Shown: one piece after another, positions 11,020-63,007 of the stretch
Position numbering within the stretch: the first letter of the stretch is position 1
Layout: each line of letters begins with the position of its first letter
From: Plasmodiophora brassicae
Lineage: Eukaryota
DNA: 64,000 nt
NCBI GenBank assembly: GCA_036867785.1
Contig: CP145413.1
Span: 248,001 to 312,000 of the forward strand
Reading direction: 5' to 3'
The notes under the pieces: generated by a model
The model's database searches: none
What the model saw: only the letters and a program-made list of their open reading frames with translations
Told to the model about the DNA's origin: nothing
Program-made: the position numbers and the translations under genes

Positions 11020-11350
11020 GCCCCATGCGGCCCTACACGCCCAACGCTGAACCTAAGGAGACCCCGCCGCACGCCTGACTGCTGTAATAAAGAGAGTGGC
11101 AGCAACGACGACAGGTACAGGTACGCGCGCCCGGTTGGGCTACCTAGCCTCCACTGGCAGCGTAACGACGTCTGTGACGACACTGATCGAAGGTCGGAGA
11201 CGTCCTCCGAAGGCGTACTAGTCGACGATGTGTAGGCAGTAGTAGATCGCGGTGTCTTTGATCCTGCTGGGCATCGGTTTCATCTCAGGCGGATTCCCGA
11301 ACAAGCAATCTCTGCCCAGGGACAGGGGCGATCGGTCATAGGCGCCGAGG

Positions 11351-12472: not shown

Positions 12473-12573
12473 GCACCCATCCGATACGTCGATACTAAAA
12501 GGGCGGCTCGCTGCCTATTTGCTATGCGTCGTGGGATCGAACGGTACGAGGCACATCTGGGCCAGCAGGCAGG

Positions 12574-24921: not shown

Positions 24922-25419
24922 ATGTCTGAAGAAGGCGCCCAAGTGAAGAAGGCGCCCAAGTGAAGAAGGCGCCCAAGCGTCAGGCTTACTGTGCTTCGTC
25001 TGTGAACGCTTGTTGTGAGTCGCATCTCGCTTAACAAATATGCCAAGACGCATGCCGAGCATCGTGTCGTTTGCCCGTTCGATGGTTGCAGCAGAACGTA
25101 TGCGACTTCGGCATCTCTTGGCAATCACGTCCGCGACAAGCATCATTGGGATATGGGGTCGCTGAACACTTCTAAATCGAATTTCCGATGCGACCATTGC
25201 GATGCGATGTACCCCAGAAGATCTTCGTTAATGGTCCATCTCCGACGCGTCTTATTCGCCTGTCGTATCTCCTCCGTGTTTCCGACATACTGGAAGATCC
25301 ACTCACGCGACGTATCGGCCGTCGCGTACACGTTCCAGACGGTTGACGAATTTCCGCCTCGTTGCCACCATAGCATGCCAGGTTTATTACATCGCTATCC
25401 GGCGCGGAACTCCGCTTAG
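24922..25419 (+). pseudogene. Disrupted C2H2 zinc-finger gene
   Basis: One intact finger (CPFDGC..LGNHVRDKH) and one degenerate finger (CDHC..LMVHLRRVL). An upstream finger CFVC..SLNKYAKTH is split by a frameshift. The ATG at 24922 hits TGA inside the 17-bp repeat. Confidence 0.55.
24927..24977. repeat. 17-bp tandem repeat x3 (TGAAGAAGGCGCCCAAG)
   Basis: Three perfect copies at 24927, 24944 and 24961. Confidence 0.95.
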
Positions 25420-25877
25420 CAGTGCTTAACGACCCCATATCATGATGATGCTTGTCGCGGACGTGGTTGCCAAGTGATGCCGAAGTCGTATAAATCCTTC
25501 TGCAACCATCGAACGGGCAGACGACACGATGCCCGGCATGCGTCTTGGGATGCTTGTTAAGTGAGCTGCGACTCGCAAACAGGCGTTCACAGACGCTGAC
25601 GCTTGGTCGAAGAGGCGATCGAGGTGGCGTGTCTTCTCGTATCGGCTAACCAATCGGTCGGCTTTTTCAATATATCTGGGCGATCCGGGGAAGCCCAGGA
25701 GGAAATATGCGTTAATGCTAACCGACGCGTGTTCCGTGTCAATGGCGGCACAAAGTCCTTCATACAAGACCGGAGACATCCAATGCGATGAGTACGGCGC
25801 GCGCCGTTCAATTTCCCTTAAGAACCCCAATCAGATGCCAGAGACTCGTGTATTAGACTGCGCTGGGGAAGAGGGCC

Positions 25878-29780: not shown

Positions 29781-30278
29781 GCACTGATCGCCTTTGGAAA
29801 TCCACGGATGGAGCAATCTTGATCCCGATCCATGTTGACTGCCGAAGTCTACGCTTGCGCATCCTCATCATTGGACACAGTGGAAGTGCAGGTCATCGTG
29901 CTTCGGAAGTGACGAAACAGACTATTATGTCACGTTGCTGAGGCGTTATCTCAGTTGGTACCGCCGACGCCGAAACGGACGCGCACCAAAGGTACCGGAT
30001 CCAGACGGGAGCATCGACGCAGCAACTTGGTATGATGGCAATGAACGCCATTAATGCATGATTTTGCGTTGCATATGTGACTTCAGTATAAGTCGCTCTT
30101 CCTAGCGTCGGTACATTACGTGGACGTGACATAATAGTCTGTTTCGTCACTTCCGAAGCACGATGACCTGCACTTCCACTGTGTCCAATGATGAGGATGC
30201 GCAAGCGTAGACTTCGGCAGTCAACATGGATCGGGATCAAGATTGCTCCATCCGTGGATTTCCAAAGGCGATCAGTGC
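29781..30278. repeat. Perfect 155-bp inverted repeat (29781-29935 / 30124-30278) with 188-bp spacer
   Basis: The arms are reverse complements when read directly. The ORF track shows the same peptide (RMRKRRLRQSTWIGIKIAPSVDFQRRSV) on both strands. Confidence 0.92.
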
Positions 30279-31072: not shown

Positions 31073-31261
31073 TTGTCGGACCTGCGGTTGGCCCTACTAA
31101 ACTGATCAGCGTCTCCCGCCTGACCTGAGACACCGGTGTTGTTGCTCAACGCAGGTTTGCAGAGGCGGTGCCGGATAAATCGGACCGTCCATCCGCCTTC
31201 CAGGACGTTGGCGACGCGCTACTGTAACCTCGTCATTCGTATGGAGACACAGTCGGCGATT

Positions 31262-32072
31262 TCAAACGTTCATTGAGGGCCACAATGCGGAATCCGTAGG
31301 CGAGGCGTCGAGAAGAACGAGGCCGATGTAGACGGACGATCCGACGAAGAACAGGCCCACTAGCGCCCACAGTAGTCCCCATGCTTTGGCCCTGTAACAA
31401 TCCAAATGTCCGATGAGCGATTGCATTGAACGAGGTAGCCACGAGACAAACGAACGGGAGGCACGGGTACAACGATGAGCATGTGGACGCATCCGACTGT
31501 GCCACCGTGCGTCGAATCGTATCGTCGTAGATGTCGTAGATCGAGAACACACAGAGGAACACGCCAAGGAACAGGTTCAGAAGTGGGACGATCCGCAGGA
31601 TATGGAGAAACGCCAAGGCAAGCGATCCTCCTAGGATCACGATGAATAGCAGGCTGAGGAAGCGCATGATCCCGTTGCGGGCCTTGGCCAGTGCAACGAG
31701 AAGCCCGACCAAGAACAGGCAGGATGCAACGTACGACGCAGTCAGATTTGTGCAACTGAGGACAGCGGCGGCTCCCCAGAAGGCGCCGCCAATGTACCCG
31801 GCCGGGGTAATCAGGCTACGCCACCCACCTCGGTACTTGGTGACACCACCTTCGTCCAACCCGATCTCCATACCGCTGACCTTGCCGCAGGTCATCCAGC
31901 AGGCGATCGCATGGCACATTTCGTGAACGAGGACCGCCAGCAGTTTAAACGGGCGCATGATCGTGAACCGCCATAGGACCAGATCGACTACAGAAAACGC
32001 GGCAATTCCGCCCAGGAACAGCCATTGCGATTCCTGGCAACAGCCAGTCAGGGCCCAGTTTGGAGATCCCAT
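31262..32072 (-). CDS. Peptidase M50B-like membrane metalloprotease
   Basis: PFKLLAVLVHEMCHA (HExxH), EGGVT..GG...PAGYIG and IYDIYDD..SDAS. Several TM segments. One intron near the 3' end. Confidence 0.85.
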
Positions 32073-32870
32073 GCCAGTAACGGCAAAGTGTGTGTGTGTG
32101 AGGGTGGGGGAGGGCGGGTTCGGTCCCGTTCCGGACCAAGGTGGAGGGTGACTCACGCCTATTCTGAATGGGACAGGACGACCAGAGATATCGATTGGGA
32201 CTGGAACCGCCACATTGTAGCGAGCTGACGAGCCAGTCATAGGCGATGCGGCCCGTTGTCATCGTTACATCCAGCCACGATTATGCAGAAACTGTTTAAA
32301 ATGCAACTGGACGAACGACTCTAACGCAACATGTATACGGTAGTCTAAACGAAGTGGCCATGAGTACATATCCCAATCCGGGCGATGGGCGCCTTCATCT
32401 CAGAACCACGATGTTCCGTCGGGCGACTAAGAAAGACGGATAATGAAGTCCTGAAAATCGTGTTATGGACCTGATAATGCGCATTCTGATCTAGAACTGT
32501 CTGTCAGGTTTGCCTAGAACCATCAATACAGAGATTATCAAGGCAAGTTCTACGCCAGAGTGCCCATCATGAAACACGATTTCTAGGGCCTTGTTTGCCG
32601 CGTCCTTTGGTCATCCGATAGGAGAAGGCGCCCAGTAGAAATTCAACGCGGTGCGATGGTACTAACCTCGACCTCGATGCGCTTCACGCAGCTACATACT
32701 CAGTAGCCTCCGCTAGTTAGTATTTTGAGGCGCGAATGCATTTCAACTTCGATGTTGCGAAGAGAGCGCTTGACGGTTATGTGCCCAGTCCACACCTGTA
32801 GGTGTACGTATGTCTTGGGCTGGATTCAAAGTTCACATGACGACAGCTGCATCACGCAGTCCGTGGCAGC

Positions 32871-43866: not shown

Positions 43867-44202
43867 CGCATGCCCGCCCCGCATCATTTGTATGCCAAAT
43901 GCACAATGTCTTATTGTATAAACGATAGATTAAACAGCCTCAGTGTCCTTTGCCGCTAAGTGCTGTCCTATGCCGGGATCCCATGCGTCCGAATTCGCAG
44001 ATGGGGCACAACGTTGACTTTCGGCGTTCGTACAAGCACCAACGGCGATGGCCCTACCGTTGATTGCTCGACACCTTACCACAACGATGGGCTCTGATCC
44101 TACTGAGTGTCCCAAACCACAGAGTCCAGCACCACATGTTTATTGCATTGGCTGAACGGTAACGGACACTAGGTATCGTACCAATGAGATCCCAGCGAAA
44201 CG

Positions 44203-45021
44203 TCAACCCTGCGTTGTGTTCAGAACAAATGCGGCTCCCGCCCGGGTCAGCGTATCGTTCGTGATGCGAGTCGCGTTATCCCGGTGGTGCCAGTTCGTGT
44301 TGTTCCAGCTGGCGGTGCCGTTAGAATCCGATTCGCTAGTGTTGCCGGTCGCGTTGTCTGAGTAGTGCCAGTCCGTGTTGTTCCAGCTGGCGGTGCCGTA
44401 AGACTCCCATTCGCTCGTGTTGCCGGTCGCGTTGTCGGAGTAGTGCCAGTTCGTGTTGTTCCAGCTGGCGGTGCCGTAAGACTCCCAATCGCTCGTGTTG
44501 CCGGTCGCGTTGTTGGAGTAGTGCCAGTCCGTGTTGTTCCAGCTGGCGGTGCCGTAAGACTCCCAATCGCTAGTGTTGCCGGTCGCGTTGTCGGAGTAGT
44601 GCCAGTCCGTGTTGTTCCAGCTGGCGGTGCCGTAAGACTCCCAATCGCTCGTGTTGCCGGTCGCGTTGTCGGAGTAGTGCCAGTCCGTGTTGTTCCAGCT
44701 GGCGGTGCCGTAAGACTCCCAATCGCTAGTGTTGCCGGTCGCGTTGTCGGAGTAGTGCCAGTTCGAGTCGTTGACGTCGGTCTGGTTAGACTGCGTTTCG
44801 TTGATCCAGGCCCCGTGATCTGGCAGCCATTGCATCGTCTTGTTGTCGTGCGTCGTCGTGTTGACCACAAGGCCGTGCGTTTCGCTGTTGTGCGTCATGT
44901 TGCTGGACGTCGCCGTGTTATTCACGAGGTCATGCTTTAAGCTGTCAGACCGCACATGGCCAACGGTGACACCAATGAGCAAGGCGATGGATAGGAGAAC
45001 ATTCTTGCGTGTGAACGGCAT
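44203..45021 (-). CDS. Secreted Asn/Thr/Trp-rich tandem-repeat glycoprotein
   Basis: Signal peptide (VLLSIALLIGVTVG). Six 26-aa repeats WHYSDNATGNTSDWESYGTASWNNTD. Many N-x-S/T sequons. Confidence 0.8.
   Translation of the reverse strand: MPFTRKNVLLSIALLIGVTVGHVRSDSLKHDLVNNTATSSNMTHNSETHGLVVNTTTHDNKTMQWLPDHGAWINETQSNQTDVNDSNWHYSDNATGNTSDWESYGTASWNNTDWHYSDNATGNTSDWESYGTASWNNTDWHYSDNATGNTSDWESYGTASWNNTDWHYSNNATGNTSDWESYGTASWNNTNWHYSDNATGNTSEWESYGTASWNNTDWHYSDNATGNTSESDSNGTASWNNTNWHHRDNATRITNDTLTRAGAAFVLNTTQG
44272..44762. repeat. 78-bp coding minisatellite, ~6.3 units
   Basis: GTGCCAGT..GT recurs at 44287, 44365, 44443, 44521, 44599, 44677 and 44755. Confidence 0.92.
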
Positions 45022-48289: not shown

Positions 48290-48728
48290 ACAATCCGCTT
48301 AATGTAAGCACCTATTATAACGGGACGTAAGCGTCCATCCCTGCAGTGAGACAATTTCAGTCGATGCTATTGAGGCTGCCGAAATGACGGTTTCGAGGCA
48401 CCTGTGACAAGCGAATGGGAACTGGCTTTCCAGACGACAGGTTCACTTAAGCGTCGGGACGTCGTCATCCACAAGCGCCTTGACAATGTCTTCGACAATG
48501 ACGTCGAAGTGTATAAAGCTCGCGTCCTAGGGGGCGCCCCAGCACCCACGATCCCATAACAATAGCTGCAACAGCTCGGCAGGGGTACCGGCGATCACAA
48601 ACTTCGTTGCCATCCCTTCCGATTAAAGGTCGAGGCGCAGGGACGAATTCGCCAGACGCCATCCACGAATGCGACGAAAGAAAACGTTTACTTCAGACAG
48701 TGCAGGCGTAGCAAACGGTTGGAGCGGC

Positions 48729-51700
48729 TCACAACTTGGCGCCGCTGGTGCCCGACTCGACACGGTCCGGGTTGGTCTTGGGCGCGTGATGCGAGTTGTG
48801 GCTCTTCTGGGTGGTGGTCCCGTCCCGCGTCCGGACGCCGCTGTACGTGCCGGGCTGGTTGCCCTTGCTGGTCCGGACGACGTTCTCCTCGGGCAGGAAC
48901 TTGACGACGTAGAACTTGTAGCCGAACAGGATCGCCCAGGTGGAGAACATGGCCAGGGCCAGGGCGAAGCAGGTCACGAAGAGCATGGCGCTGGGGTTGT
49001 CGGCGATCAGCCCGCTGAGCACCAGGAAGATCAGGCACTGCGTCGAGATGGCGTACGCCATGAACGACAGCGCCTTGGCCTCGTTGAACACGGACGGCAC
49101 CGTGCGCACCTTGACGGCCAGCAGCATGCTGACGGCGATCAGCAGGCCCTTGTAGACGACGCTGGTCGTGTACAGGTACCCGGAGGCGGGCGACACGCCC
49201 GAGCACGTGTGGTACTGGCGGCCGGCGCTGACGACGACCTGCGCGCGCAGCGGGTCGACCAGCAGCCAGACCAGGTTGATGAGCATGTCGACGGCGAACA
49301 TGCCGGCCAGGACGACCGTCAGCTGCCAGTTGGTGACGCGGGCCACCGTCTTGCCCTCGACGTAGATGAAGATGTACAGGATGCGCCCGGTCTTGACGAT
49401 GATCGACCCGACCAGCAGGACGAAGGCGACGGACAGGAGGAAGGGGCGCGCGGCGCAGAACCCCGGCAGGAGCGACAGGTCCATCTCGAACAGGGCGGAC
49501 AGGAACAGGAGCAGGAAGCCGCACAGGATGCCGACCAGCATGATGGACTGGAAGAAGACGGACCCGGCCTTGACGATGGGCTGCTCGCGCCACCGGTACA
49601 CGAGGAGGGCCGACCCGAGGCAGACGACGGTGCCCAGCAGCGACACGGCCATGCTGACGCCGACCGAGGCCAGGCTGGCGTCGGTGAACAGCGCCGACAG
49701 CGTCGTGCGCGTGCCGAGCGTGACGGCCAGGTTCTGCGTGCCCGACGCCATCACCGCCCACCCGTTCAGGCAGGACACGATCTCGTAGCTGACGGCGTCG
49801 ACCAGCTGGTACCCGGGCGAGGCGCCGATCGACGCCAGCGACGGCGACCGGTACGCGATCGTCAGGTTGCGGTTGGCCACGAGGATCTCGGCCGTCCCGT
49901 TCAGCGACGCCGCCCCGACCAGCTGGATCGCGTCGATGCCGTGCTCGCCCTTGCTCTTCAGCGCGTTCACCGTCAGGCGCAGCGACCGCGTCGCGAAGTT
50001 CGTCGGGCAGACGGGCGGCTGCCACGTGCGCATGGCGGTCAGGCCGGCGGGCAGGACGGCGCCCGCCCAGATCGTCGCCCAGGTGCCGTCCGGGCGCTGC
50101 GCCTCGATCTGCTGGACGGCGCCGCCGCCCGTGCTCTCGTAGACGTTGACGCCGGTCGCGTACACGGCGTTGGCGAACGCCACGACGATCGTGGCGACGA
50201 CGGGCCCGTTCGGCGACCAGGCGTTCGCCGACGGGCCGCCGACGCGGACGTTGGCAGCGCCGACGACGGCGCTGGCCGGGTGCCCGTCCGCCGACGACGA
50301 CGCGCCGACGACGTGGTCGACCCACTGCGGCGCGATGCCGATCGGCGCGTACTGGTACTGGCCGACGTCGTCGTCGGCGACGCTGACGCCGTCGTCGCCG
50401 ACCTGGTGCAGCGTCCCGTACTGGGGCATGGAGCGGATCAGGACGCGGGCGTCGCCCGGCCCCACCCCGTTGACGAGCAGCGGCCCGAACTCGATGTAGG
50501 AGACGGCGCCGCCGACGAGCGCGGCGCCGTCGCCGATCGTGTAGGACGCGCGACACAGCGTCGTGGACAGGGGCAGGCGCGCGTCCTGCAACGACAGCGT
50601 CTGGTTGCAGGGGGCGCAGGCGGTCGCCCCCGGGCGCGCCGTGTACGTGCGGCCGGGCGCGCACGGGTCGCACCCGACCGCACCGGTCCCCGACTGGAAC
50701 GTGTTCACCGGGCACGCCAGGCACGACGTGGCGAACGACGGCAACGGCGCGTACGTCCCTGCCGGGCAGGGCACGCAGCGGCGCGCCGCCTGGTCCAGGT
50801 GCGTGCCCTCGGTGCACATGACGTTGACGCGGACGCTGAGCGGCGACGACGCCGCCCACGCGTCGCTGACCACGTAGGCGATCGTCGTGAACGGCATGCC
50901 GCCGTCGCCGTCGTTCGTCAGGACCTGGAGGCGGGCGCTGGGCAGCGTCACGGGCGCCGACGTGATCGTGTGCCACGACGACCCGTTCGGGTTCCAGTAC
51001 TGGACGACGCCGTGGTCGGGCACGCCCGTCACCGTGTAGGCGATCGGGTCGCCGTCCGGGTCGGACCCGTTCAGGACGACGCCGACCGTCTGCCCGGTCG
51101 AGCCCGTCGCGTCAAACACGAACCCGCCGATCGGCGCCGACGACACGACCTGGTCGGGGCGCGTCGCCGGGTTCTCGTTGCCCAGGAAGCAGTGTGTGCC
51201 GCCGTAGCAGGTGTGCGTCAGGTAGGCGGGCGAGTCGGCCGACTTGGCCGACGGGATGCAGGCCGAGGCGTCCAGCGCGGGCATCGCTACCGAGGCGTAC
51301 AACGGGAAGTCGGGCTGGCAGTAGAACCGGGGCTCGCACGGGACGCACCCGCCGGCGACCAGGTCGTTGCCGCGCCGGGTGCCGTCGCGGACGACGCCGC
51401 CCGCGTTGTCGTCGAACGTCCAGTAGGCGAACAGGTCGGGTTCGTCGCCGCCCAGCTGCTGCCACATGCGCTGGCGGATCTCGGCGCCCGACAGCGACCG
51501 GTTCCACAGGCGCAGGTCGTCGTACACGCCCTTGTTGAAGACCTCGCTCCAGAACGTCCAGGTGCCGACCGTGACGTGGTTGTACCCGCCCGGGGCGGAC
51601 GCGCTCTGGAACCCGTCGTGCGCCCGCGTCATGTTGGCCAGCTGGCGCCCGTTCACGTAGATGGCGGCCTGCGTCCCCTGGACGTGGTCGGCCACGAACG

Positions 51701-53249
51701 CGTAATGCGCCCACCCGCCGTAGAACGGCGTTGCCGGCGTCGCCAGGTTGTCGCTGCCAATGTTCCAGTTGATGTTGTGGTTCCCGTCCGGCATCTGGAC
51801 GTGCCAGCGGCCCCAGCGGCGCCCGGCGCCGAACTCGGACGCCCACGCCTGGTCCATCTCGCCGTTGCCGTTCAGGCTGAAGAAGGCCGTGTCGCCGGCG
51901 CACGACGCGTCCAGGTAGGCCCAGAACTCGACCGTGATCGCCGACAGGCCGTTGGACGGCGAGACGCGCGGCCAGGCCAGCGACGGCGCGATAAAGTACT
52001 GCTGGACGCCGTCGAGCGACGCGGCGTTCCCCGCCGACCCTGCCACCGGCCGCGTGTTCAGGCGCGCGTTCAGGACGATCGTGGCGTGCTGCGCCAGGAC
52101 GAAGCCGCCGGGCGCCCGCACCGACAGGTCGACGTCGATCGAGGCGACCGGGGCGCCCGTCTTGCCCAGCACCTGCGCGAACGTCAACGACAGGGCGGAC
52201 GACACCGCCTGGATGACGGTGCCGGGCGTCGTCACCGGCACGCCGTTGATCGTGACCGTGCCGACGCCGGCCGGCAGGTTCACCCTGGTGACCGTCAGCG
52301 TGGCGTTGCGCCCGACGACGCTGGCGGTGCGGTTCCGGGCGACCAGCAGCGCGATCGTGACCGGGTCGGCACGCGACGACGTCGTGTCCTGGCGCGCCTC
52401 GACGATCAGCGACGACGACGTCGTGTTGGTCGGGAACGGGGCCGTCGACGGGACGCGCGCCGGCGAACGAACGAGCAGGCCGCCACCGACGGAGACGCTG
52501 GTCGGCCCGGCCGCCATGCCATGGTTGATGGGCGGGCCCTGCGCCTCGTCGAACGTCAGGTACAGGATCAGGTGGTTGGCGATGTCGTCGGCGCTGGGCG
52601 GCGTCCACATCATGGCGGCGATGTCGGCCGGGTCGGTGATGGCGCGCTTGTAGATGCGGATGTCGTCCAGGTCGCCCTGCAGCGTCTGGTGGTTGGAGCT
52701 GCCCGCCGTCGTGTCGAACTGGCCGACGTTCAGCGTCGTGCCGAACGGCAGCGACGCGTACGACGTCGCGTAGTCGCATCGTCGCTGCAGGACGCCGTCG
52801 ATGAAGTAGTACTGGAGGTTGGGCGTGCGCACGAACGCCAGATGGTGCCAGGTGCCGTCGGCCAGGTTCCGCCCAGTGACGTAGTCGAACGAGCACTGGC
52901 TGGCGAAGTCGAGGCTCTCGACACCCTGGACCTTGAAGAAGCCAACCCGGTCCAGTTGCAGCAGGGGGCCGTCGTGCAGAGCGAACCCGGCTATGGTCAT
53001 CTCGGTGGACGTCAGAGCCGGGATATTAATCCAGGCGGCCAGCGTCATGCTCTGCGACGCGAACGGGTTCGCGCCGTTGCCGGCCGCGCACAGCATCGTG
53101 ATCTGCAGGAACGTGCGACGCGCTGGGTCGGCGCTGAACCGCATCGCGCTCCCGCTCGCCGGTATGTACGACTCGGACAAGGCCGCCGTCGCCTGACGGG
53201 CAAACACGAGGATCGCCATGGCCGTAACTGCTGTCGACAACGCCGCCAT
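48729..53249 (-). CDS. Class C (7tm_3, GABA-B-like) GPCR with LamG/pentraxin, cadherin-like and Cys-rich ectodomain, copy A
   Basis: 1506-aa intronless ORF with signal peptide. Two LamG-like domains (WHHLAF..GDLDDIRIY; WAHYAF..GVYDDLRLWN). GSDPDGDPIAY cadherin-like unit. CxPCPAGTY repeats. 7TM with IVKAGS, IIVKTGRI, KVRTVPSVFNEAK. Confidence 0.88.
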   Translation of the reverse strand: MAALSTAVTAMAILVFARQATAALSESYIPASGSAMRFSADPARRTFLQITMLCAAGNGANPFASQSMTLAAWINIPALTSTEMTIAGFALHDGPLLQLDRVGFFKVQGVESLDFASQCSFDYVTGRNLADGTWHHLAFVRTPNLQYYFIDGVLQRRCDYATSYASLPFGTTLNVGQFDTTAGSSNHQTLQGDLDDIRIYKRAITDPADIAAMMWTPPSADDIANHLILYLTFDEAQGPPINHGMAAGPTSVSVGGGLLVRSPARVPSTAPFPTNTTSSSLIVEARQDTTSSRADPVTIALLVARNRTASVVGRNATLTVTRVNLPAGVGTVTINGVPVTTPGTVIQAVSSALSLTFAQVLGKTGAPVASIDVDLSVRAPGGFVLAQHATIVLNARLNTRPVAGSAGNAASLDGVQQYFIAPSLAWPRVSPSNGLSAITVEFWAYLDASCAGDTAFFSLNGNGEMDQAWASEFGAGRRWGRWHVQMPDGNHNINWNIGSDNLATPATPFYGGWAHYAFVADHVQGTQAAIYVNGRQLANMTRAHDGFQSASAPGGYNHVTVGTWTFWSEVFNKGVYDDLRLWNRSLSGAEIRQRMWQQLGGDEPDLFAYWTFDDNAGGVVRDGTRRGNDLVAGGCVPCEPRFYCQPDFPLYASVAMPALDASACIPSAKSADSPAYLTHTCYGGTHCFLGNENPATRPDQVVSSAPIGGFVFDATGSTGQTVGVVLNGSDPDGDPIAYTVTGVPDHGVVQYWNPNGSSWHTITSAPVTLPSARLQVLTNDGDGGMPFTTIAYVVSDAWAASSPLSVRVNVMCTEGTHLDQAARRCVPCPAGTYAPLPSFATSCLACPVNTFQSGTGAVGCDPCAPGRTYTARPGATACAPCNQTLSLQDARLPLSTTLCRASYTIGDGAALVGGAVSYIEFGPLLVNGVGPGDARVLIRSMPQYGTLHQVGDDGVSVADDDVGQYQYAPIGIAPQWVDHVVGASSSADGHPASAVVGAANVRVGGPSANAWSPNGPVVATIVVAFANAVYATGVNVYESTGGGAVQQIEAQRPDGTWATIWAGAVLPAGLTAMRTWQPPVCPTNFATRSLRLTVNALKSKGEHGIDAIQLVGAASLNGTAEILVANRNLTIAYRSPSLASIGASPGYQLVDAVSYEIVSCLNGWAVMASGTQNLAVTLGTRTTLSALFTDASLASVGVSMAVSLLGTVVCLGSALLVYRWREQPIVKAGSVFFQSIMLVGILCGFLLLFLSALFEMDLSLLPGFCAARPFLLSVAFVLLVGSIIVKTGRILYIFIYVEGKTVARVTNWQLTVVLAGMFAVDMLINLVWLLVDPLRAQVVVSAGRQYHTCSGVSPASGYLYTTSVVYKGLLIAVSMLLAVKVRTVPSVFNEAKALSFMAYAISTQCLIFLVLSGLIADNPSAMLFVTCFALALAMFSTWAILFGYKFYVVKFLPEENVVRTSKGNQPGTYSGVRTRDGTTTQKSHNSHHAPKTNPDRVESGTSGAKL

Positions 53250-54354
53250 CTTGGCGTCCGACGCTTGAACTTGACGAGTGGCGCTTCGTGGGTCGGACCG
53301 GAACGGTTCCCTGGACGCTACTGTGACCGTCTGTAGGTGATGTGCTTTACTTCACCGCATGCGGGGCCGGTGTGGTCTCCCTGTGGCCTGACACCGGCAG
53401 CTGCGGCAGCGTGGTGGCGGCATCACGCCAGCGCGTGCGGCGTCGTACACGGCACGCGGAATGCGGCAGCGGGGGCCCTGCGACCCAGCCATGCAGACTG
53501 CCGCTCCCAATGTCCACCTGCTCTCTCCGGCCTGATGCATGACTGGACGTCTTAGGTCTACTTTGGCTGGGCTCGTCAAATGCGATTCGTGCGCCCGTCA
53601 AGCAATCTTATATCCCAGTGCCAAGGGTCGAGCCAGCACAGACATGGCCTTTGCGGCCAAATGTCGAGGTTGACTTCTGCGCAGGTCGATCTCTCGGCTT
53701 CGCCTTGCAGTATTTGTCTGCAGTGCCTTGGCTATGGCAGCGCAGATAATGACGGTACACCTTCGGAACTCGAAAAGTGCACACTTTAACATGCCTCCAT
53801 TCGGAAGACTGTGCCATATAGAATGAAAAGACGCAACACATGTATCAGTGAATACTATACGCCGAGTCGCAACTTCGTCGTGGACCTGTTTTGGTATCGT
53901 CGGGAGGGCTTGTAGTTGTCTAATCCACAATAGTTAATAGGGAGTCCGAGAATATGTGTACTCAGGTGTTTTGTTGACACGCACACTCTCGGACGGCAAT
54001 GCCACATCCATCAGTGTGAGATGTCCGCGTTCAGAACTCCCATCCGGCGACAGGCTCCGCCATCCACCTATCCGCACTGGTAGACAGTGGAGCTAGCCAC
54101 AACTTCATCGACCACGATATCGCCACGGTTTCCGCCTCACAGGGGGATAGGGCTGTGGATCGTTGCTTTTGTGACTGCCCGACGCGTCCACCGCGCCCAC
54201 CACCTGCGCCCGCTCAGCCGGGAAACGTGCGCTTTGGATCGCAGCGTCGAGCGCCGATGGCTGGCATGGGCGTACAGCCATGCCAAGGGCGGGATGTAGA
54301 GACGATACAAGTTTGTCGGCTAGGAGTTTACCGCCCAGAGTGAAGTCGCCGTTT

Positions 54355-54438
54355 GACGATGCGAGGGCTTGGCGTGTATACGCCAAGCCCTCGCATCGTC
54401 TAACCTAAACGACACTTACTGGCCAGTAAGTGTCGTTT
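54355..54438. repeat. Twin perfect hairpins: 21-bp stem with 4-nt loop (54355-54400) and 32-bp palindrome (54407-54438)
   Basis: GACGATGCGAGGGCTTGGCGT-gtat-ACGCCAAGCCCTCGCATCGTC and AAACGACACTTACTGG|CCAGTAAGTGTCGTTT. Confidence 0.95.
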
Positions 54439-55260
54439 TATAGGATTTTCTCTTAGGGGATCAGCTGAGCAGGTGGAAAGGCGAGGGGGCGCCCACAGGA
54501 GGTTGATGTAGTCAGGAGTGTAAGCAGATCAACCAAGGAACGGAAAGTCTAGCTACATACCTTTGAGGAATTGCGGAGCCCTCAGACTTGCCCCGGAGTC
54601 GCCAATCTGCGAGATCTAGGACAAAGGTGATAGGCCGGCGCTGCCAGGTCGGGGGAAGTTGGCGTTCTGCAAGCTGATCCTAGGGTCGTCGCATCCGAGA
54701 CCGAGGCGCCTGCGAGAAACATACCTGGTGGGTAGGTCTTCATGGGAAAGTGTGGTTTAGGAGCAAACGCCTTACTTGCACCTGCTCTTGATGCAGCTGG
54801 TCACGCCTGTAAGGTCGATTATCATCATCATGTTTATGTCTGCCGCATAATTAGTAACAGGGTGATTCCAAGGTATTTGACCTCTGGCGTGATCACTATT
54901 TGAACTGGTTCGCCTTGACGCAGTCATTCGGACTGTATTGGTTGAATAGGACAGTTTCGTCCCAGTTGATCTTGCTGAGACCATCGTACTTGTTTATTGG
55001 AATCCCCAGTTGCCAATATGGCGATGTCGCCGACAAAGATGTTGTTGGAGATTCCTTCGACCGGCTAAACCGTTGGACCCGATATCGTCGGTGTCAGACG
55101 CGGCCCATCACTGTAAGGCGCCATTTCAGGTTACGCACCCACGTCTGTCAAAGGTTTCAAATACCTACCCAGGCGGTCACAGACTTACGGTTTACCTCAA
55201 CAGGGGCAGAGTCCACGCCCATAAAGCGCCACTCGTCAAGTTCAAGCGTCGGACGCCAAG

Positions 55261-58200
55261 ATGGCGGCGTTGTCGACAGCAGTGACCGTCATGGCGATCC
55301 TCGTGTTTGCCCGTCAGGCGACGGCGGCCTTGTCCGAGTCGTACATACCGGCGAGCGGGAACGCGATGCGGTTCAGCGCCGACCCAGCGCGTCGCACGTT
55401 CCTGCAGACCACGATGCTGTGCGCGGCCGGCAACGGCGCGAACCCGTTCGCGTCGCAGAGCATGACGCTGGCCGCCTGGATTAATATCCCGGCTCTGACG
55501 TCCACCGAGATGACCATAGCCGGGTTCGCTCTGCACGACGGCCCCCTGCTGCAACTGGATCGGGTCGGCTTCTTCAAGGTCCAGGGTGTCGAGAGCCTCG
55601 ACTTCGCCAGCCAGTGCTCGTTCGACTACGTCACTGGGCGGAACCTGGCCGACGGCACCTGGCACCATCTGGCGTTCGTGCGCACGCCCAACCTCCAGTA
55701 CTACTTCATCGACGGCGTCCTGCAGCGACGATGCGACTACGCGACGTCGTACGCGTCGCTGCCGTTCGGCACGACGCTGAACGTCGGCCAGTTCGACACG
55801 ACGGCGGGCAGCTCCAACCACCAGACGCTGCAGGGCGACCTGGACGACATCCGCATCTACAAGCGCGCCATCACCGACCCGGCCGACATCGCCGCCATGA
55901 TGTGGACGCCGCCCAGCGCCGACGACATCGCCAACCACCTGATCCTGTACCTGACGTTCGACGAGGCGCAGGGCCCGCCCATCAACCATGGCATGGCGGC
56001 CGGGCCGACCAGCGTCTCCGTCGGTGGCGGCCTGCTCGTTCGTTCGCCGGCGCGCGTCCCGTCGACGGCCCCGTTCCCGACCAACACGACGTCGTCGTCG
56101 CTGATCGTCGAGGCGCGCCAGGACACGACGTCGTCGCGTGCCGACCCGGTCACGATCGCGCTGCTGGTCGCCCGGAACCGCACCGCCAGCGTCGTCGGGC
56201 GCAACGCCACGCTGACGGTCACCAGGGTGAACCTGCCGGCCGGCGTCGGCACGGTCACGATCAACGGCGTGCCGGTGACGACGCCCGGCACCGTCATCCA
56301 GGCGGTGTCGTCCGCCCTGTCGTTGACGTTCGCGCAGGTGCTGGGCAAGACGGGCGCCCCGGTCGCCTCGATCGACGTCGACCTGTCGGTGCGGGCGCCC
56401 GGCGGCTTCGTCCTGGCGCAGCACGCCACGATCGTCCTGAACGCGCGCCTGAACACGCGGCCGGTGGCAGGGTCGGCGGGGAACGCCGCGTCGCTCGACG
56501 GCGTCCAGCAGTACTTTATCGCGCCGTCGCTGGCCTGGCCGCGCGTCTCGCCGTCCAACGGCCTGTCGGCGATCACGGTCGAGTTCTGGGCCTACCTGGA
56601 CGCGTCGTGCGCCGGCGACACGGCCTTCTTCAGCCTGAACGGCAACGGCGAGATGGACCAGGCGTGGGCGTCCGAGTTCGGCGCCGGGCGCCGCTGGGGC
56701 CGCTGGCACGTCCAGATGCCGGACGGGAACCACAACATCAACTGGAACATTGGCAGCGACAACCTGGCGACGCCGGCAACGCCGTTCTACGGCGGGTGGG
56801 CGCATTACGCGTTCGTGGCCGACCACGTCCAGGGGACGCAGGCCGCCATCTACGTGAACGGGCGCCAGCTGGCCAACATGACGCGGGCGCACGACGGGTT
56901 CCAGAGCGCGTCCGCCCCGGGCGGGTACAACCACGTCACGGTCGGCACCTGGACGTTCTGGAGCGAGGTCTTCAACAAGGGCGTGTACGACGACCTGCGC
57001 CTGTGGAACCGGTCGCTGTCGGGCGCCGAGATCCGCCAGCGCATGTGGCAGCAGCTGGGCGGCGACGAACCCGACCTGTTCGCCTACTGGACGTTCGACG
57101 ACAACGCGGGCGGCGTCGTCCGCGACGGCACCCGGCGCGGCAACGACCTGGTCGCCGGCGGGTGCGTCCCGTGCGAGCCCCGGTTCTACTGCCAGCCCGA
57201 CTTCCCGTTGTACGCCTCGGTAGCGATGCCCGCGCTGGACGCCTCGGCCTGCATCCCGTCGGCCAAGTCGGCCGACTCGCCCGCCTACCTGACGCACACC
57301 TGCTACGGCGGCACACACTGCTTCCTGGGCAACGAGAACCCGGCGACGCGCCCCGACCAGGTCGTGTCGTCGGCGCCGATCGGCGGGTTCGTGTTTGACG
57401 CGACGGGCTCGACCGGGCAGACGGTCGGCGTCGTCCTGAACGGGTCCGACCCGGACGGCGACCCGATCGCCTACACGGTGACGGGCGTGCCCGACCACGG
57501 CGTCGTCCAGTACTGGAACCCGAACGGGTCGTCGTGGCACACGATCACGTCGGCGCCCGTGACGCTGCCCAGCGCCCGCCTCCAGGTCCTGACGAACGAC
57601 GGCGACGGCGGCATGCCGTTCACGACGATCGCCTACGTGGTCAGCGACGCGTGGGCGGCGTCGTCGCCGCTCAGCGTCCGCGTCAACGTCATGTGCACCG
57701 AGGGCACGCACCTGGACCAGGCGGCGCGCCGCTGCGTGCCCTGCCCGGCAGGGACGTACGCGCCGTTGCCGTCGTTCGCCACGTCGTGCCTGGCGTGCCC
57801 GGTGAACACGTTCCAGTCGGGGACCGGTGCGGTCGGGTGCGACCCGTGCGCGCCCGGCCGCACGTACACGGCGCGCCCGGGGGCGACCGCCTGCGCCCCC
57901 TGCAACCAGACGCTGTCGTTGCAGGACGCGCGCCTGCCCCTGTCCACGACGCTGTGTCGCGCGTCCTACACGATCGGCGACGGCGCCGCGCTCGTCGGCG
58001 GCGCCGTCTCCTACATCGAGTTCGGGCCGCTGCTCGTCAACGGGGTGGGGCCGGGCGACGCCCGCGTCCTGATCCGCTCCATGCCCCAGTACGGGACGCT
58101 GCACCAGGTCGGCGACGACGGCGTCAGCGTCGCCGACGACGACGTCGGCCAGTACCAGTACGCGCCGATCGGCATCGCGCCGCAGTGGGTCGACCACGTC

Positions 58201-59781
58201 GTCGGCGCGTCGTCGTCGGCGGACGGGCACCCGGCCAGCGCCGTCGTCGGCGCTGCCAACGTCCGCGTCGGCGGCCCGTCGGCGAACGCCTGGTCGCCGA
58301 ACGGGCCCGTCGTCGCCACGATCGTCGTGGCGTTCGCCAACGCCGTGTACGCGACCGGCGTCAACGTCTACGAGAGCACGGGCGGCGGCGCCGTCCAGCA
58401 GATCGAGGCGCAGCGCCCGGACGGCACCTGGGCGACGATCTGGGCGGGCGCCGTCCTGCCCGCCGGCCTGACCGCCATGCGCACGTGGCAGCCGCCCGTC
58501 TGCCCGACGAACTTCGCGACGCGGTCGCTGCGCCTGACGGTGAACGCGCTGAAGAGCAAGGGCGAGCACGGCATCGACGCGATCCAGCTGGTCGGGGCGG
58601 CGTCGCTGAACGGGACGGCCGAGATCCTCGTGGCCAACCGCAACCTGACGATCGCGTACCGGTCGCCGTCGCTGGCGTCGATCGGCGCCTCGCCCGGGTA
58701 CCAGCTGGTCGACGCCGTCAGCTACGAGATCGTGTCCTGCCTGAACGGGTGGGCGGTGATGGCGTCGGGCACGCAGAACCTGGCCGTCACGCTCGGCACG
58801 CGCACGACGCTGTCGGCGCTGTTCACCGACGCCAGCCTGGCCTCGGTCGGCGTCAGCATGGCCGTGTCGCTGCTGGGCACCGTCGTCTGCCTCGGGTCGG
58901 CCCTCCTCGTGTACCGGTGGCGCGAGCAGCCCATCGTCAAGGCCGGGTCCGTCTTCTTCCAGTCCATCATGCTGGTCGGCATCCTGTGCGGCTTCCTGCT
59001 CCTGTTCCTGTCCGCCCTGTTCGAGATGGACCTGTCGCTCCTGCCGGGGTTCTGCGCCGCGCGCCCCTTCCTCCTGTCCGTCGCCTTCGTCCTGCTGGTC
59101 GGGTCGATCATCGTCAAGACCGGGCGCATCCTGTACATCTTCATCTACGTCGAGGGCAAGACGGTGGCCCGCGTCACCAACTGGCAGCTGACGGTCGTCC
59201 TGGCCGGCATGTTCGCCGTCGACATGCTCATCAACCTGGTCTGGCTGCTGGTCGACCCGCTGCGCGCGCAGGTCGTCGTCAGCGCCGGCCGCCAGTACCA
59301 CACGTGCTCGGGCGTGTCGCCCGCCTCCGGGTACCTGTACACGACCAGCGTCGTCTACAAGGGCCTGCTGATCGCCGTCAGCATGCTGCTGGCCGTCAAG
59401 GTGCGCACGGTGCCGTCCGTGTTCAACGAGGCCAAGGCGCTGTCGTTCATGGCGTACGCCATCTCGACGCAGTGCCTGATCTTCCTGGTGCTCAGCGGGC
59501 TGATCGCCGACAACCCCAGCGCCATGCTCTTCGTGACCTGCTTCGCCCTGGCCCTGGCCATGTTCTCCACCTGGGCGATCCTGTTCGGCTACAAGTTCTA
59601 CGTCGTCAAGTTCCTGCCCGAGGAGAACGTCGTCCGGACCAGCAAGGGCAACCAGCCCGGCACGTACAGCGGCGTCCGGACGCGGGACGGGACCACCACC
59701 CAGAAGAGCCACAACTCGCATCACGCGCCCAAGACCAACCCGGACCGTGTCGAGTCGGGCACCAGCGGCGCCAAGTTGTGA
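55261..59781 (+). CDS. Class C GPCR with LamG/pentraxin ectodomain, copy B
   Basis: Same 1506-aa protein as copy A except three N-terminal substitutions (TAM/TVM, GSA/GNA, QIT/QTT). Confidence 0.88.
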   Translation: MAALSTAVTVMAILVFARQATAALSESYIPASGNAMRFSADPARRTFLQTTMLCAAGNGANPFASQSMTLAAWINIPALTSTEMTIAGFALHDGPLLQLDRVGFFKVQGVESLDFASQCSFDYVTGRNLADGTWHHLAFVRTPNLQYYFIDGVLQRRCDYATSYASLPFGTTLNVGQFDTTAGSSNHQTLQGDLDDIRIYKRAITDPADIAAMMWTPPSADDIANHLILYLTFDEAQGPPINHGMAAGPTSVSVGGGLLVRSPARVPSTAPFPTNTTSSSLIVEARQDTTSSRADPVTIALLVARNRTASVVGRNATLTVTRVNLPAGVGTVTINGVPVTTPGTVIQAVSSALSLTFAQVLGKTGAPVASIDVDLSVRAPGGFVLAQHATIVLNARLNTRPVAGSAGNAASLDGVQQYFIAPSLAWPRVSPSNGLSAITVEFWAYLDASCAGDTAFFSLNGNGEMDQAWASEFGAGRRWGRWHVQMPDGNHNINWNIGSDNLATPATPFYGGWAHYAFVADHVQGTQAAIYVNGRQLANMTRAHDGFQSASAPGGYNHVTVGTWTFWSEVFNKGVYDDLRLWNRSLSGAEIRQRMWQQLGGDEPDLFAYWTFDDNAGGVVRDGTRRGNDLVAGGCVPCEPRFYCQPDFPLYASVAMPALDASACIPSAKSADSPAYLTHTCYGGTHCFLGNENPATRPDQVVSSAPIGGFVFDATGSTGQTVGVVLNGSDPDGDPIAYTVTGVPDHGVVQYWNPNGSSWHTITSAPVTLPSARLQVLTNDGDGGMPFTTIAYVVSDAWAASSPLSVRVNVMCTEGTHLDQAARRCVPCPAGTYAPLPSFATSCLACPVNTFQSGTGAVGCDPCAPGRTYTARPGATACAPCNQTLSLQDARLPLSTTLCRASYTIGDGAALVGGAVSYIEFGPLLVNGVGPGDARVLIRSMPQYGTLHQVGDDGVSVADDDVGQYQYAPIGIAPQWVDHVVGASSSADGHPASAVVGAANVRVGGPSANAWSPNGPVVATIVVAFANAVYATGVNVYESTGGGAVQQIEAQRPDGTWATIWAGAVLPAGLTAMRTWQPPVCPTNFATRSLRLTVNALKSKGEHGIDAIQLVGAASLNGTAEILVANRNLTIAYRSPSLASIGASPGYQLVDAVSYEIVSCLNGWAVMASGTQNLAVTLGTRTTLSALFTDASLASVGVSMAVSLLGTVVCLGSALLVYRWREQPIVKAGSVFFQSIMLVGILCGFLLLFLSALFEMDLSLLPGFCAARPFLLSVAFVLLVGSIIVKTGRILYIFIYVEGKTVARVTNWQLTVVLAGMFAVDMLINLVWLLVDPLRAQVVVSAGRQYHTCSGVSPASGYLYTTSVVYKGLLIAVSMLLAVKVRTVPSVFNEAKALSFMAYAISTQCLIFLVLSGLIADNPSAMLFVTCFALALAMFSTWAILFGYKFYVVKFLPEENVVRTSKGNQPGTYSGVRTRDGTTTQKSHNSHHAPKTNPDRVESGTSGAKL

Positions 59782-60518
59782 GCCGCTGGAAACGTCCGCC
59801 ATCGGGTCACCTTCATTCGCCCGTGGTTTGAATAAAGGTCTTGACGGTTACACAACGGCTAACGTCCTTTCCCTGCTCTCCGCGTATCGTCGTGTGACGG
59901 TCGGGTCTCCCTGGCAGTATCGATTTCGATATTTGCATGAGCTTGCGGTACCCGGAGGCGGTCCTCCGGCTCCAGTTGTTCCTGGACTGCCTGGAAGGAT
60001 TGGGCCCAAGGTACGTTGTCGTTCAGCGGTGAGGGTGATACTGATACAGTCCACTGGCAACCGCTGTATACAACAGGTCGTATGCCGTCGTTCTCGGTGC
60101 CCGGCACATACCTGGGCCTTGTTAACCTGCGCCACACATCACCGCGCCCTGCCCTCCCGCCTGCCTTCCACATTTGTGATGGGTCTCTTTGCCGCCCGAC
60201 CGAGGACGTGTTCTGGCAGTGCCGCCCCGCACCGGAACGCCGCTGCTTCCCCAGTGCGCGCCGCCCAAGCCACGCGCGCGGGTCAGTGCAGCTCTGACCC
60301 CGTGTCGACGCGCCACCCGTCAGCCGCCGGCGCCACGGGGTGACGAGGCGCGCGCGGGGTTCTCCTTTCGGGGCGTCGTCCGTACGCGGCGCTCGCCGAT
60401 CTGCGGGGAGGAAGTTCTGGAAATAGACACGCCCCGTGGCGGACCAGCGCGTCTGCCCTGGATCACTGTCCAGGGCCTTTGAGCTGCCCGGCCCGGTGTA
60501 TCGCGTGCCTTCCCCGAC

Positions 60519-63007
60519 ATGCTGGGCGCGCCGGCCCCGGGCGACAACATCCACGAACAGTTCCACCGGTTGCTGCTGTCCGAGCGAACCTTCGTCCAGG
60601 ACGTCACCGCCTTCTACCGGCGCGTTGTCCGCCGTCTGACCATGGAGGCGGACTACGACAGGCGGGTCGCGTCGTCGACGGATCCGGCGTCGTCGTCTGA
60701 CGCGGCCCGCGTTCGCGTGCCGAGCGCCGCCGTGGCGCACCGGCACCATGTTCGCCGGTGCTTCGACAACGTCGCCCGCCTCGTGTTCGTGCACGACGCG
60801 TTCCTCGACGACCTCGAACGCACGCTGTCCAGGATCGGCCATGGGCACAACCTCGCCGACGCCCTCATCGACTGCTTCGCCGCGAACCTGCCCGGCCTGA
60901 CGTTCCACGCCGAGTACGCTGCCGACCTGCCCATCGCCATCGGCGTCCTGTCCTGGAGGGCATCGCGCGATTCCCCTTTGCAACGTTTCATTGGTGACGC
61001 CAGCCCTGACGGCCGACCTGAGTACCTGTTCGAGCAACTTCGGCTGCCGCTGGCGCGCGTCCCCCAGTACCTGCAGGTCATGCTCGTCGTGCGCGACCTG
61101 AAACCGAAACGGGTCGCCTTCGTCGACGTCATCGTCCAGGCGCTGACAACAACATTGGCGGCGGTCATCGACCCGGCACCGTTCCCGGCCGCCGCCGCCA
61201 ACGAAATCATGGAGGTCGAGGACCAGCTCAAGGACCCGATCGACCTCGTCCGTCCGGGACGAACGCTCGGTACGCGGCGGTCGCGTTGCAAGGACGCTTC
61301 GCTGAACGTGGGCTTGCTGCAGTTCGATCTGGAATCGTGCACCACAGACGACGATCGTGCGTCCGGCCCGGGCGGACGACGATCCTGCACATGTGCAACG
61401 ACGTCATGCTCGTGGCGACCCGTCGCCGGTTCAAGCAGCGCCTCGTGGATGTGTTCGCGCTCGCCGACCTGAACGCGTTCGACGTGTCCGACGACAAGAA
61501 CGGCGTGCACCAGATCGTCCTGCGAAGTCGCACGTCGGATCAGACAATGTCGATCCGCATGGCGAACGCGGATCTGAAGAACGGCTGGCTGATTGACATC
61601 TGGGCGGCCAGCAGTGCCGCTGCGACCATGTGCCAGCGGTCGTCCCTGTCGTCGTCGGGGATGCCGTGCAAGACGCCAGTGCCCGGCGAACTCATGCAGA
61701 GGATCCGGTCGCTGTCGGCCCAGGACAATCGAGGTAGGCGGCAACTGTGTTGCGGCGGTAAAGGCCAACGCGCTGAACGTGGCCATTAGAAGGGCACGGC
61801 GGCGACGCCGAGTCAAGTGATGACGGCGACGACGATGACGACGGTCGCGTCCCGGCCGTCGTCGTCACGGTCGACTCCGTTCTGGCGTCGCTGCGGCATG
61901 ATCAGTTGGCGTTCTGCCTAACGATGTCGCACCTGGCGACGTCGTGGAAGACGGTGGCGAAAAGCAATCGATCAGGGCGTCAGCTGCTCGGCGAGGCGTG
62001 CACTGCCCTGCACTCGCTGGCCAGGGCGCACATCCACCTCCTGTCGATGCTGAACCGATTGCCGACGCTGACCGCCGCCGAGATCGTTTCGTCCATCTGT
62101 GATGCCGTCCCTGAGATTCGGGCGCTGACGCTTCAGCTCATGCGTCAGGAGCCCGCCATGCGCCGCGCGTTCGGTACGTTTGTCGTCGGGGGCCCCGTCC
62201 CGCACGGCTTGACGGGCTGACCGTGCCCCTGCAGATACGGTCGAGCTCCAGGTGGCGATCGACGCGTTCGAGATGGATCCCAAGTCGCAGCAGTTCCCGT
62301 TGTCGGCGTTCCTGGGCGCCCCTCGTTGCCGTCTGTCGTATTACGTGGCCGTCTGCCAGCAGTTGGAGGATGTCCTGGCATATGACGGCGACGAACGGGA
62401 ACGCGCCGCCGTCGGGAACGCTAGGGAGGCGTTGAACGACGTCGTCAGCGAGATCCGGTTCGCCGTATGGCAGAACGAGCAGCGCGTCGTTCTGGAGGAG
62501 GTACACCTGGATCGTGCCTCAGCAGCGCTGGTGTCTGACACAAGGCATTGCTAGTGCCAGGCACAGTTCAAGCGGTACCGGAGGCCACCTTTATTAATGG
62601 GCGGCGGTCTGGCGACCCGATGCCTGCTGCTGACGGGCACGATCGGCGTCATGAAGTCTTCGATCACGCTGTGCACGTTCATGCTGTTCTCCGACTACCT
62701 GCTGTGGAGCCGGCCGCGGCGAGACGCCAGCCTGGCCCTGGAACGGTGCGTTCGCCTGGAACGGGTCCAGGTGTCCTCCGACGACACGATCCAGTCGTCG
62801 TCATCCGCGTCGCGCCTCCTGCTCGTCCTGCACGTCCCCGAACGGGTCACACTGTGCTTCACCAGCGCTCAGCAACGATGCGCATGGTTCAGCGCCCTGG
62901 TCGATGCCATCCTGTCGAGGAAAGCGGCGCTATTGCAGGACTCGCCGCCTTCGAGCACCAGACCGACTCCCCATGTTGCGACCTACCTTATGCTTGTAGA
63001 CCAATGA
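60519..63007 (+). CDS. Divergent RhoGEF-like protein with tandem DH-PH modules
   Basis: First DH: LLLSERTFVQD, LRLPLARVPQY. First PH: ILHMCNDVMLV..KNGWLIDI. Second degenerate DH: LSAFLGAPRCRLSYY. Second PH: FMLFSDYLLW..RCAWFSAL. Joined by short introns. Confidence 0.65.

Follow-up and report, generated by a model that had tools for sequence, protein, structure and literature searches.

Why should two neighbouring genes be identical over more than four kilobases and differ from each other only near the place where they face? This question is raised by a locus in a 64,000-nt stretch of DNA from Plasmodiophora brassicae (GenBank assembly GCA_036867785.1, contig CP145413.1, positions 248,001 to 312,000 of the forward strand), which was analysed at its full length and is called the window here. 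Two large genes for a predicted seven-transmembrane (7TM) receptor lie head to head in the window, each filling one arm of an 11-kb palindrome. We found that the differences between the arms are gathered next to the central spacer, and that synonymous and amino-acid composition change at the same place. This pattern would be explained by an older inverted duplication whose outer 4.2 kb are held identical by recurrent GC-biased gene conversion between the arms, a reading that we consider probable, if not strongly so. The analysis covered the sequence of a single assembly. The principal features, in window positions, are as follows (CDS, coding sequence; ORF, open reading frame).

48723..53286, minus strand: left arm, 4564 nt, GC 0.70; reverse complement of 55224–59787 with seven mismatches.
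55224..59787, plus strand: right arm, 4564 nt, from the same arm-to-arm comparison.
53287..55223, no strand: unique spacer of 1937 nt with a GC of 0.55; both 5' flanking regions lie in it.
48729..53249, minus strand: left receptor gene (P0002), a single ORF of 1506 codons, with the domain content of the right copy and three residues different.
55261..59781, plus strand: right receptor gene (P0001), 1506 codons; signal-peptide-like N-terminus, two Laminin_G_3 domains, a cadherin-like piece, two Ephrin_rec_like repeats, a discoidin/CBM32-like beta-sandwich and 7tm_3.
52944..53226, minus strand: left-arm segment with all seven differences (CDS nt 24–306); AT-ending codons 15/102.
55284..55566, plus strand: right-arm segment with all seven differences; AT-ending codons 14/102.

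An inverted-repeat search of the window returned arms at 48715–53292 and 55218–59795, 4578 nt each and 1925 nt apart. When these arms were compared base by base, 12 mismatches were found: three at the outer tip (48718, 48721 and 48722), two at the inner tip (53287 and 53288) and seven inside. Trimming of the tips left arms of 4564 nt with 99.85% identity, and each proved to consist of one intron-free 1506-codon gene, the 37 nt before its ATG and 6 nt after its stop codon, exactly the extent given in a preliminary description of this DNA. The two CDSs run divergently from a unique spacer, again as had been described, and the locus thus shows what defines a palindrome, namely two inverted arms of very high identity around unique sequence. 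It is most probably a real feature that had been correctly recognized.

The seven internal mismatches (left-arm positions 52944, 52950, 53101, 53149, 53221, 53223 and 53226) all fell within the inner 343 nt of the arms, where divergence was 2.0%, and the outer 4221 nt had none. For seven randomly placed differences the probability of landing together in the inner 343 nt is 1.4e-8, and at the inner rate the probability of finding no difference in 4221 nt is ~4e-38. The spread of mismatches along the aligned arms, proposed beforehand as a check, was far from even. The arm ends were sharp: the innermost 60 nt were free of mismatches, and homology ceased within a few bases at both ends. Four of the differences are silent (CDS nt 24, 27, 300 and 306) and three replace an amino acid, at nt 29 (V10A), nt 101 (N34S) and nt 149 (T50I), the left copy having A10, S34 and I50. 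Within CDS nt 24–306 this corresponds to pS 0.050 and pN 0.013. The earlier count of three amino acids plus some silent sites in the first ~310 nt was accurate, all seven sites lying within CDS nt 1–306.

Such two-tier divergence implies either that the outer part has been homogenised or that mutation in the inner part had a special history, and it does not fit one uniform recent duplication. Of the two origins first offered, gene conversion or a very recent duplication, the former accords with the pattern and the latter, in its uniform form, does not. The identity of the arms also goes beyond what age alone would leave, as divergence is non-uniform and past the arms only a collinear motif of 18–20 nt could be aligned. 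With blastn at word size 7, no homology was detected between the outer flanks (2 kb on each side), within the spacer or from spacer to arms. Local alignment with shuffles at the inner and outer junctions left this upstream motif as the only residual homology; a match between the outer flanks (TGAA..TAAA) was not significant, its score being reached in 54 of 300 shuffles. The motif occupies two sites.

53321..53339, minus strand: left-copy upstream motif ACCTACAGACGGTCACAG, 72 nt before the ATG, found by local alignment with the right upstream region.
55163..55182, plus strand: right-copy upstream motif ACCTACCCAGGCGGTCACAG, 79 nt before the ATG, from the same alignment.

The shared sequence, ACCTA(CC)CAGRCGGTCACAG, had a score that 0 of 300 shuffles reached in a 60-nt test and 6 of 300 in a 200-nt test, and exact matches to its core CAGRCGGTCACAG occurred in the window only at these two sites. 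A motif of this kind in otherwise unalignable sequence is expected if the duplication once extended further; it points to a duplicated unit of formerly greater length, of which the part not reached by conversion has decayed. The motif may also be a shared promoter element. The proposal that each copy has a different proximal promoter was thus borne out in part for the predicted promoters: overall, the upstream sequences could not be aligned, but the 37 nt preceding the ATG are common to both copies, as is the motif 72 and 79 nt upstream.

The same distribution of differences has to be weighed against an assembly or polishing artefact, in which one gene was wrongly doubled, or diverged copies were homogenised by polishing with multi-mapped short reads so that variants were kept only where unique sequence lay no further than about one insert length away. 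The surviving differences do lie within 343 nt of the unique spacer, roughly a short-read insert size. The protein database is also relevant here. The closest named relative of the receptor was P0003, a Plasmodiophora brassicae protein of 74–75% identity, which agrees with the presumed organism and is, on sequence, probably a paralogue. When residues 307–1506 were compared with protein representatives, 68 matched with E values of 1e-30 or lower, and identity was 73%, 44%, 34% and 31% for the closest of them. In this database the receptor cluster (P0002) was recorded on one contig, whereas P0003 and a control gene, the peptidase M50B-like ORF at 31233–32240 on the minus strand (own cluster at 100%, next match a diatom protein at 48%), were recorded on two contigs each. 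Had the window come from a sister species, the control gene should have met a separate P. brassicae protein; the window is therefore probably P. brassicae or DNA within 90% identity of it, and P0003 a paralogue. A search for shorter fragments matching receptor residues 1–500 found none. Other assemblies may lack the receptor locus or have collapsed it, or it may be isolate-specific. However, polishing anchored in unique sequence should have spared variants at the outer edge too, where ~7 would be expected in the outer 343 nt at 2% and none was seen. The unique 1.9-kb spacer, the different genes on the outer flanks and the seven copy-specific variants do not have the shape of a fold-back read chimera, and an 11-kb structure is within ordinary long-read reach. 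Both copies are intact, and this, together with their distinct unique flanks and the copy-specific variants, argues for two real loci. An artefact therefore appears improbable.

Further evidence came from base composition. GC was 0.70 in the arms, 0.55 in the spacer, 0.56 in the left flank and 0.65 in the right flank, so that the excess was confined to the arms; arms richer in GC than spacer and flanks are a signature of GC-biased conversion, the probable cause here. The GC content of third codon positions (GC3) was 0.974 and 0.973 in the two receptor genes compared with 0.54–0.87 in the 16 other Pfam-confirmed coding pieces of the window, and no other stop-to-stop ORF of at least 180 aa had a GC3 above 0.87. 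Housekeeping genes had low values (citrate synthase 0.63, PGI 0.54), which makes expression-linked codon bias an unlikely cause of the receptor GC3. Within the receptor genes the bias was not uniform. AT-ending codons made up 14 of codons 1–102 in the right copy and 15 of 102 in the left, compared with 25 of 1404 elsewhere (Fisher P 6e-8 and 1e-8, respectively). Their share fell to ~5% in codons 103–306 and ~2% in codons 307–1020, and codons 999–1486 had none, which amounts to 488 consecutive G/C endings; two AT endings reappeared in the last 27 codons, adjoining the outer arm edge. The GC3 gradient remained when codons 1–102 were left out (Spearman P 0.001). Besides, 13 of the 14–15 AT-ending codons in the first segment are common to both copies.

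The amino acids, as independent evidence, followed the same trend. Relative to P0003, the residue of the palindrome copy was the GC-richer of the two at 181 sites and the GC-poorer at 87 (P 1e-8), with GC-richer to GC-poorer exchanges of 30:9 for V/I, 19:4 for A/S, 16:3 for A/T and 10:1 for L/I. By segment the ratio was 13:15 in residues 1–102 and then 40:20, 65:22 and 63:30 in turn; the first segment differed from the remainder (13 vs 15 against 168 vs 72, Fisher P 0.018), and past residue 102 the bias was 2–3-fold. Arm divergence, synonymous GC and amino-acid GC bias therefore have a common boundary near codon 102, as expected if a long-running GC-biased conversion covers the outer 4.2 kb and seldom reaches the inner edge. 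It is the GC3 data and the amino-acid bias that favour repeated conversion.

Two other loci may be mentioned with regard to composition. The right neighbour of the palindrome (60483–61469, plus strand) had a GC3 of 0.83 and a sub-threshold RhoGEF match (E 1.2e-5, 26.0 bits vs a cut-off of 27.6); another RhoGEF lies at 1618–2412. At 9869–13736 there are three tandem copies (periods ~1.45 and 1.28 kb, 61–84% identity) of a gene with MHYT repeats, which Pfam describes as a bacterial signalling N-terminal repeat. Its four coding pieces had GC3 values of 0.87 and 0.84, the highest outside the receptor genes, 0.79 and 0.66.

The favoured reading can be put as follows. The inverted duplication, on a nuclear chromosome, would not be brand new, given that hardly any resemblance is left between the flanks and that divergence is 2% across the innermost 343 nt of the arms. 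Recurrent intrachromosomal conversion from arm to arm would keep the outer 4.2 kb identical, and a GC bias of this conversion would have pushed third codon positions to 97–100% G/C and amino acids towards those with GC-rich codons, both effects fading towards the inner edge, where conversion would be rarer. The outcome would be two receptors identical but for three N-terminal residues, under largely different 5' flanks. Paired copies of this kind may allow higher dosage or separate regulation, and each could serve as a repair template for the other. A bolder version, which we put forward only tentatively, is that one receptor gene in effect proof-reads its twin, and that persistent GC-biased conversion drove 488 codons to G/C endings and shifted the amino acids, leaving a map of conversion intensity from none in the first 100 codons to saturation further out.

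Part of the same data would be accounted for if the inverted duplication were very recent and had arisen by a template switch, either replication-based or fold-back. The seven differences would then be a cluster of errors near the junction, or the trace of a later exchange with a diverged allele, and the extreme GC3 would be older and unrelated. Break-induced and template-switch replication is mutagenic near junctions. The sharp arm ends and the lack of mismatches in both the innermost 60 nt and the outer 4221 nt agree with such an event, as does the presence of two further small inverted duplications in the window (155 nt at 100% and 163 nt at 87%), so that events of this type recur; relatives of the receptor are also GC-rich in amino-acid composition. 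Yet the 13 AT-ending codons shared by the copies mean that the low-GC3 5' segment does not consist of new mutations, and the coincidence of the arm-divergence, GC3 and amino-acid boundaries would be left unexplained. A divergence of 2% is high for a junction scar, and the collinear motif past the arms suggests an older, wider homology. We regard a recent duplication as rather unlikely.

Several observations weigh against recurrent GC-biased conversion and should be considered together. The relatives P0029 and P0031 had GARP fractions of 0.319 and 0.363, compared with 0.319 for P0001, and GC-richness may thus be partly a family trait, or the extreme GC3 may predate the duplication. When exchanges were polarised with an outgroup, the AT-ward shift of the P0003 lineage (7 up, 26 down) was about as strong as the GC-ward shift of the palindrome lineage (31 up, 11 down), and the signal of the latter weakened as more outgroups were added (35/24 and 42/25); the polarisation depends on outgroup choice and composition and lends weak support. 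An edge effect would be expected at both ends of the arms, yet the outer 343 nt had no arm-to-arm difference. A single long conversion tract would give identity as well, with no need for recurrence, and a reduced GC3 at the 5' ends of genes may have causes of another kind. No GC excess was seen in the second perfect inverted repeat of the window, with its 155-nt arms (0.50 vs 0.52). The record on one contig and the lack of fragments, described above, mean that the two copies have no independent sighting. Finally, conversion is deduced here from the sequence of one locus in one assembly.

The two small inverted duplications deserve a description of their own. The perfect one (29781–29935 and 30124–30278) has 155-nt arms with 100% complementarity around a 188-nt spacer, is apparently non-coding and follows a histidine-phosphatase gene; origin as a fold-back element is conceivable, and so is a young inverted duplication. 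In the other (25013–25175 and 25416–25578; 163 nt, 87%, 240-nt spacer), each arm codes for one and the same C2H2 zinc-finger-type peptide (…HRVVCPFDGC…SASLGNHVRDKHH…), the two coding strands being opposite and running towards the spacer. The occurrence of three inverted duplications in 64 kb suggests that the process recurs in this genome.

Long arms that are identical and inverted lend themselves to inversion, and the preliminary description had suggested that recombination between them might turn the spacer around and thereby exchange promoters and N-termini. Taken further, this would make the locus an invertible switch in which a crossover re-pairs promoters and N-termini with gene bodies for regulation or variation. 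In human Y palindrome P6, rare inversions accompany conversion (PMC3723533), and a pangenome preprint counts 110 inversions among isolates (10.64898/2026.10.14.759018), of which this locus may or may not be one. The geometry, however, does not give the proposed result. Any crossover within the identical 4221 nt turns the spacer around along with both 5' regions and the two variable N-terminal segments. Each promoter thus remains linked to its own N-terminus and joins an identical gene body; the 3' flanks alone change places, and neither the proteins nor the promoter–gene combinations are new. Inversion would thus leave promoter–CDS pairing as it was, and the recombinase that usually accompanies such switches was not seen: none of the 124 ORFs of at least 130 aa scanned outside the arms, and none of 36 ORF pieces of the spacer, had a recombinase domain. 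We consider a switch very unlikely.

The close fit of each arm to a CDS (37 nt of 5' and 6 nt of 3' sequence added) also brings to mind an RNA-mediated origin, with the second copy being a retrocopy of a processed mRNA that was inserted nearby in inverted orientation. A single ORF of 4.5 kb is in line with this idea in a window whose other genes appear as short exon pieces; among these are ordinary eukaryotic genes such as citrate synthase, PGI, PA28 and RhoGEF. The spacer, moreover, contains a probable retrotransposon relic, listed here with a second spacer feature.

54020..54340, plus strand: probable retrotransposon aspartic protease relic LVDSGASHNFID; sub-threshold Pfam matches to RVP_2 (E 0.085) and Asp_protease_2 (E 0.11).
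54351..54438, no strand: two adjacent perfect hairpins (54351–54404 and 54407–54438), with stems of 21 and 14 bp and 4-nt loops.

An Atlas feature search scored the first of these at 0.91 to retropepsin clusters, with 18 of 30 matches in that family set, and its translation AIHLSALVDSGASHNFIDHDIA resembles the active-site stretch of retrotransposon aspartic proteases, for which we take the motif LVDSGASHNFID to be typical. Pfam returned nothing above threshold for the 36 ORF pieces of the spacer, and our assignment of the ORF to a protease relic is tentative. Neither of the marks of a processed retrocopy, a poly(A) tail and a target-site duplication, was observed: no poly(A) tract or 3' untranslated region follows either stop codon, homology ends 6–14 nt past the stop, and the arm ends show no sign of a target-site duplication. 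Since both copies are intron-free, intron loss cannot mark which of them would be the copy. A retrocopy is, in our judgement, the least probable of the explanations considered. With regard to the hairpins, they lie 100–170 nt from the centre of the palindrome (54255), and none was found elsewhere in the window. Their predicted DNA fold had an energy of -45.9 kcal/mol (z -12.7), and none of 200 shuffles was as stable. Rfam families (at gathering thresholds) and tRNAs (ARAGORN) were absent from the whole window, and the hairpins matched no known RNA family.

What protein does the palindrome preserve? Pfam detected 7tm_3 (PF00003) in residues 1198–1445 with E 3e-34 (119.2 bits vs a cut-off of 33.5), which identifies the seven-helix region of class C receptors. 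It also found two Laminin_G_3 domains (E 3.6e-30), two Ephrin_rec_like repeats (E 3.7e-10) and a weak cadherin-like piece. In a sequence search of PDB, GABA-B2 was the best match (E 4e-16), followed by metabotropic glutamate receptors, and the matches were confined to residues 1192–1490. A Venus-flytrap or ANF_receptor domain, which marks the ectodomain of class C G protein-coupled receptors (GPCRs), was not detected by Pfam in the whole receptor (E up to 0.01) or in residues 1–280, 281–680 and 881–1200 searched separately (E up to 1). Residues 880–1200 had no Pfam match and were modelled by AlphaFold as beta-sandwiches with a mean pLDDT of 81.9; Foldseek with this model returned PAPP-A (E 4e-8) and CBM32/discoidin galactose-binding folds (target TM 0.55–0.71). 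Judged from sequence and models, the receptor is a predicted class C-type 7TM protein with a lectin/adhesion-type ectodomain and not a canonical class C GPCR, because 7tm_3 is present, the Venus-flytrap domain is absent and a lectin/beta-sandwich ectodomain takes its place. An in-frame N-terminal extension was rejected, as the open frame upstream holds no ATG, GTG or TTG. A literature search combining P. brassicae, GPCR and metabotropic glutamate found no paper.

Opposite the receptor genes there are two long reading frames.

48669..53336, plus strand: full-length antisense ORF of 1555 aa.
55192..59802, minus strand: full-length antisense ORF of 1536 aa.

Neither was accepted as a gene. GC in them peaks at codon position 1 (0.96), which mirrors the third-position GC of the sense strand; with sense GC3 near 100%, the antisense ORFs are a compositional by-product that could mislead gene finders. 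One more feature of the window, apart from the palindrome, is a minus-strand ORF of 272 codons with ~9 head-to-tail copies of a 78-nt (26-codon) unit at 44176–44877, for which Pfam had no match.

If the favoured reading is correct, the locus would offer, outside animals, a compact, gene-sized case in which GC-biased conversion drives concerted evolution. Converted and unconverted sequence would meet inside a single CDS, where synonymous, non-synonymous and arm-divergence signals can be read against each other. Should the bolder version hold, GC3 profiles alone could serve to find and date conversion-kept gene pairs without population data. For clubroot research, the locus offers a duplicated, unusually built receptor of class C type with a lectin-like ectodomain; a GPCR-pathway inhibitor lessened clubroot symptoms according to one review (PMC9180986). 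The palindrome is likely to be collapsed or mis-called in short-read assembly and mapping, and its extreme GC3 and full-length antisense ORFs call for caution in annotation as by-products of composition.

How does the locus compare with known systems? The passages searched in the telomere-to-telomere, PacBio e3 and pangenome (10.64898/2026.10.14.759018) reports on P. brassicae, as well as literature listings, contained no mention of a nuclear palindrome or of gene conversion in this species; in the PacBio e3 passages the word "palindromic" was used for mitochondrial repeats only. This suggests that a conversion-kept gene palindrome represents a known process apparently not yet described in P. 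brassicae. The spread of this parasite is largely clonal, as stated in a preprint abstract. Palindromes and gene conversion in a genome with little outcrossing have reportedly been discussed for another organism, the parthenogenetic springtail Folsomia candida. Among receptors, the protein resembles class C GPCRs (GABA-B, metabotropic glutamate and calcium-sensing receptors) in its 7tm_3 domain, but in place of a detected Venus-flytrap domain it has two LamG-like domains, a cadherin-like piece, ephrin-receptor-like cysteine repeats, a discoidin/CBM32-like sandwich and a fold match to PAPP-A. With regard to gene arrangement, PfRh2a and PfRh2b of Plasmodium falciparum are likewise large surface-protein genes placed head to head, with long identical stretches ascribed to gene conversion and a short diverged end. 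In that pair identity lies on the 5' side and divergence on the 3' side, the reverse of the situation here, and the protein family is a different one.

The closest parallel in architecture is provided by the palindromes of primate sex chromosomes (human Y P1–P8, and X). According to two papers on the primate Y and X (PMC3723533, PMC8981503), these undergo GC-biased arm-to-arm conversion in multi-kilobase tracts and have GC-enriched arms. The locus described here shares with them inverted arms of more than 99.8% identity, a unique spacer, genes within the arms, arm GC above that of the flanks and homogenised stretches of several kilobases. It differs in scale, with arms of 4.6 kb compared with tens of kilobases to megabases, in that each arm is almost exactly one CDS, and in its host, a protist parasite of plants. 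Besides, the synonymous GC effect is far stronger here (GC3 0.97, with 488 consecutive G/C-ending codons), and the conversion to which we would ascribe it is inferred from the sequence.

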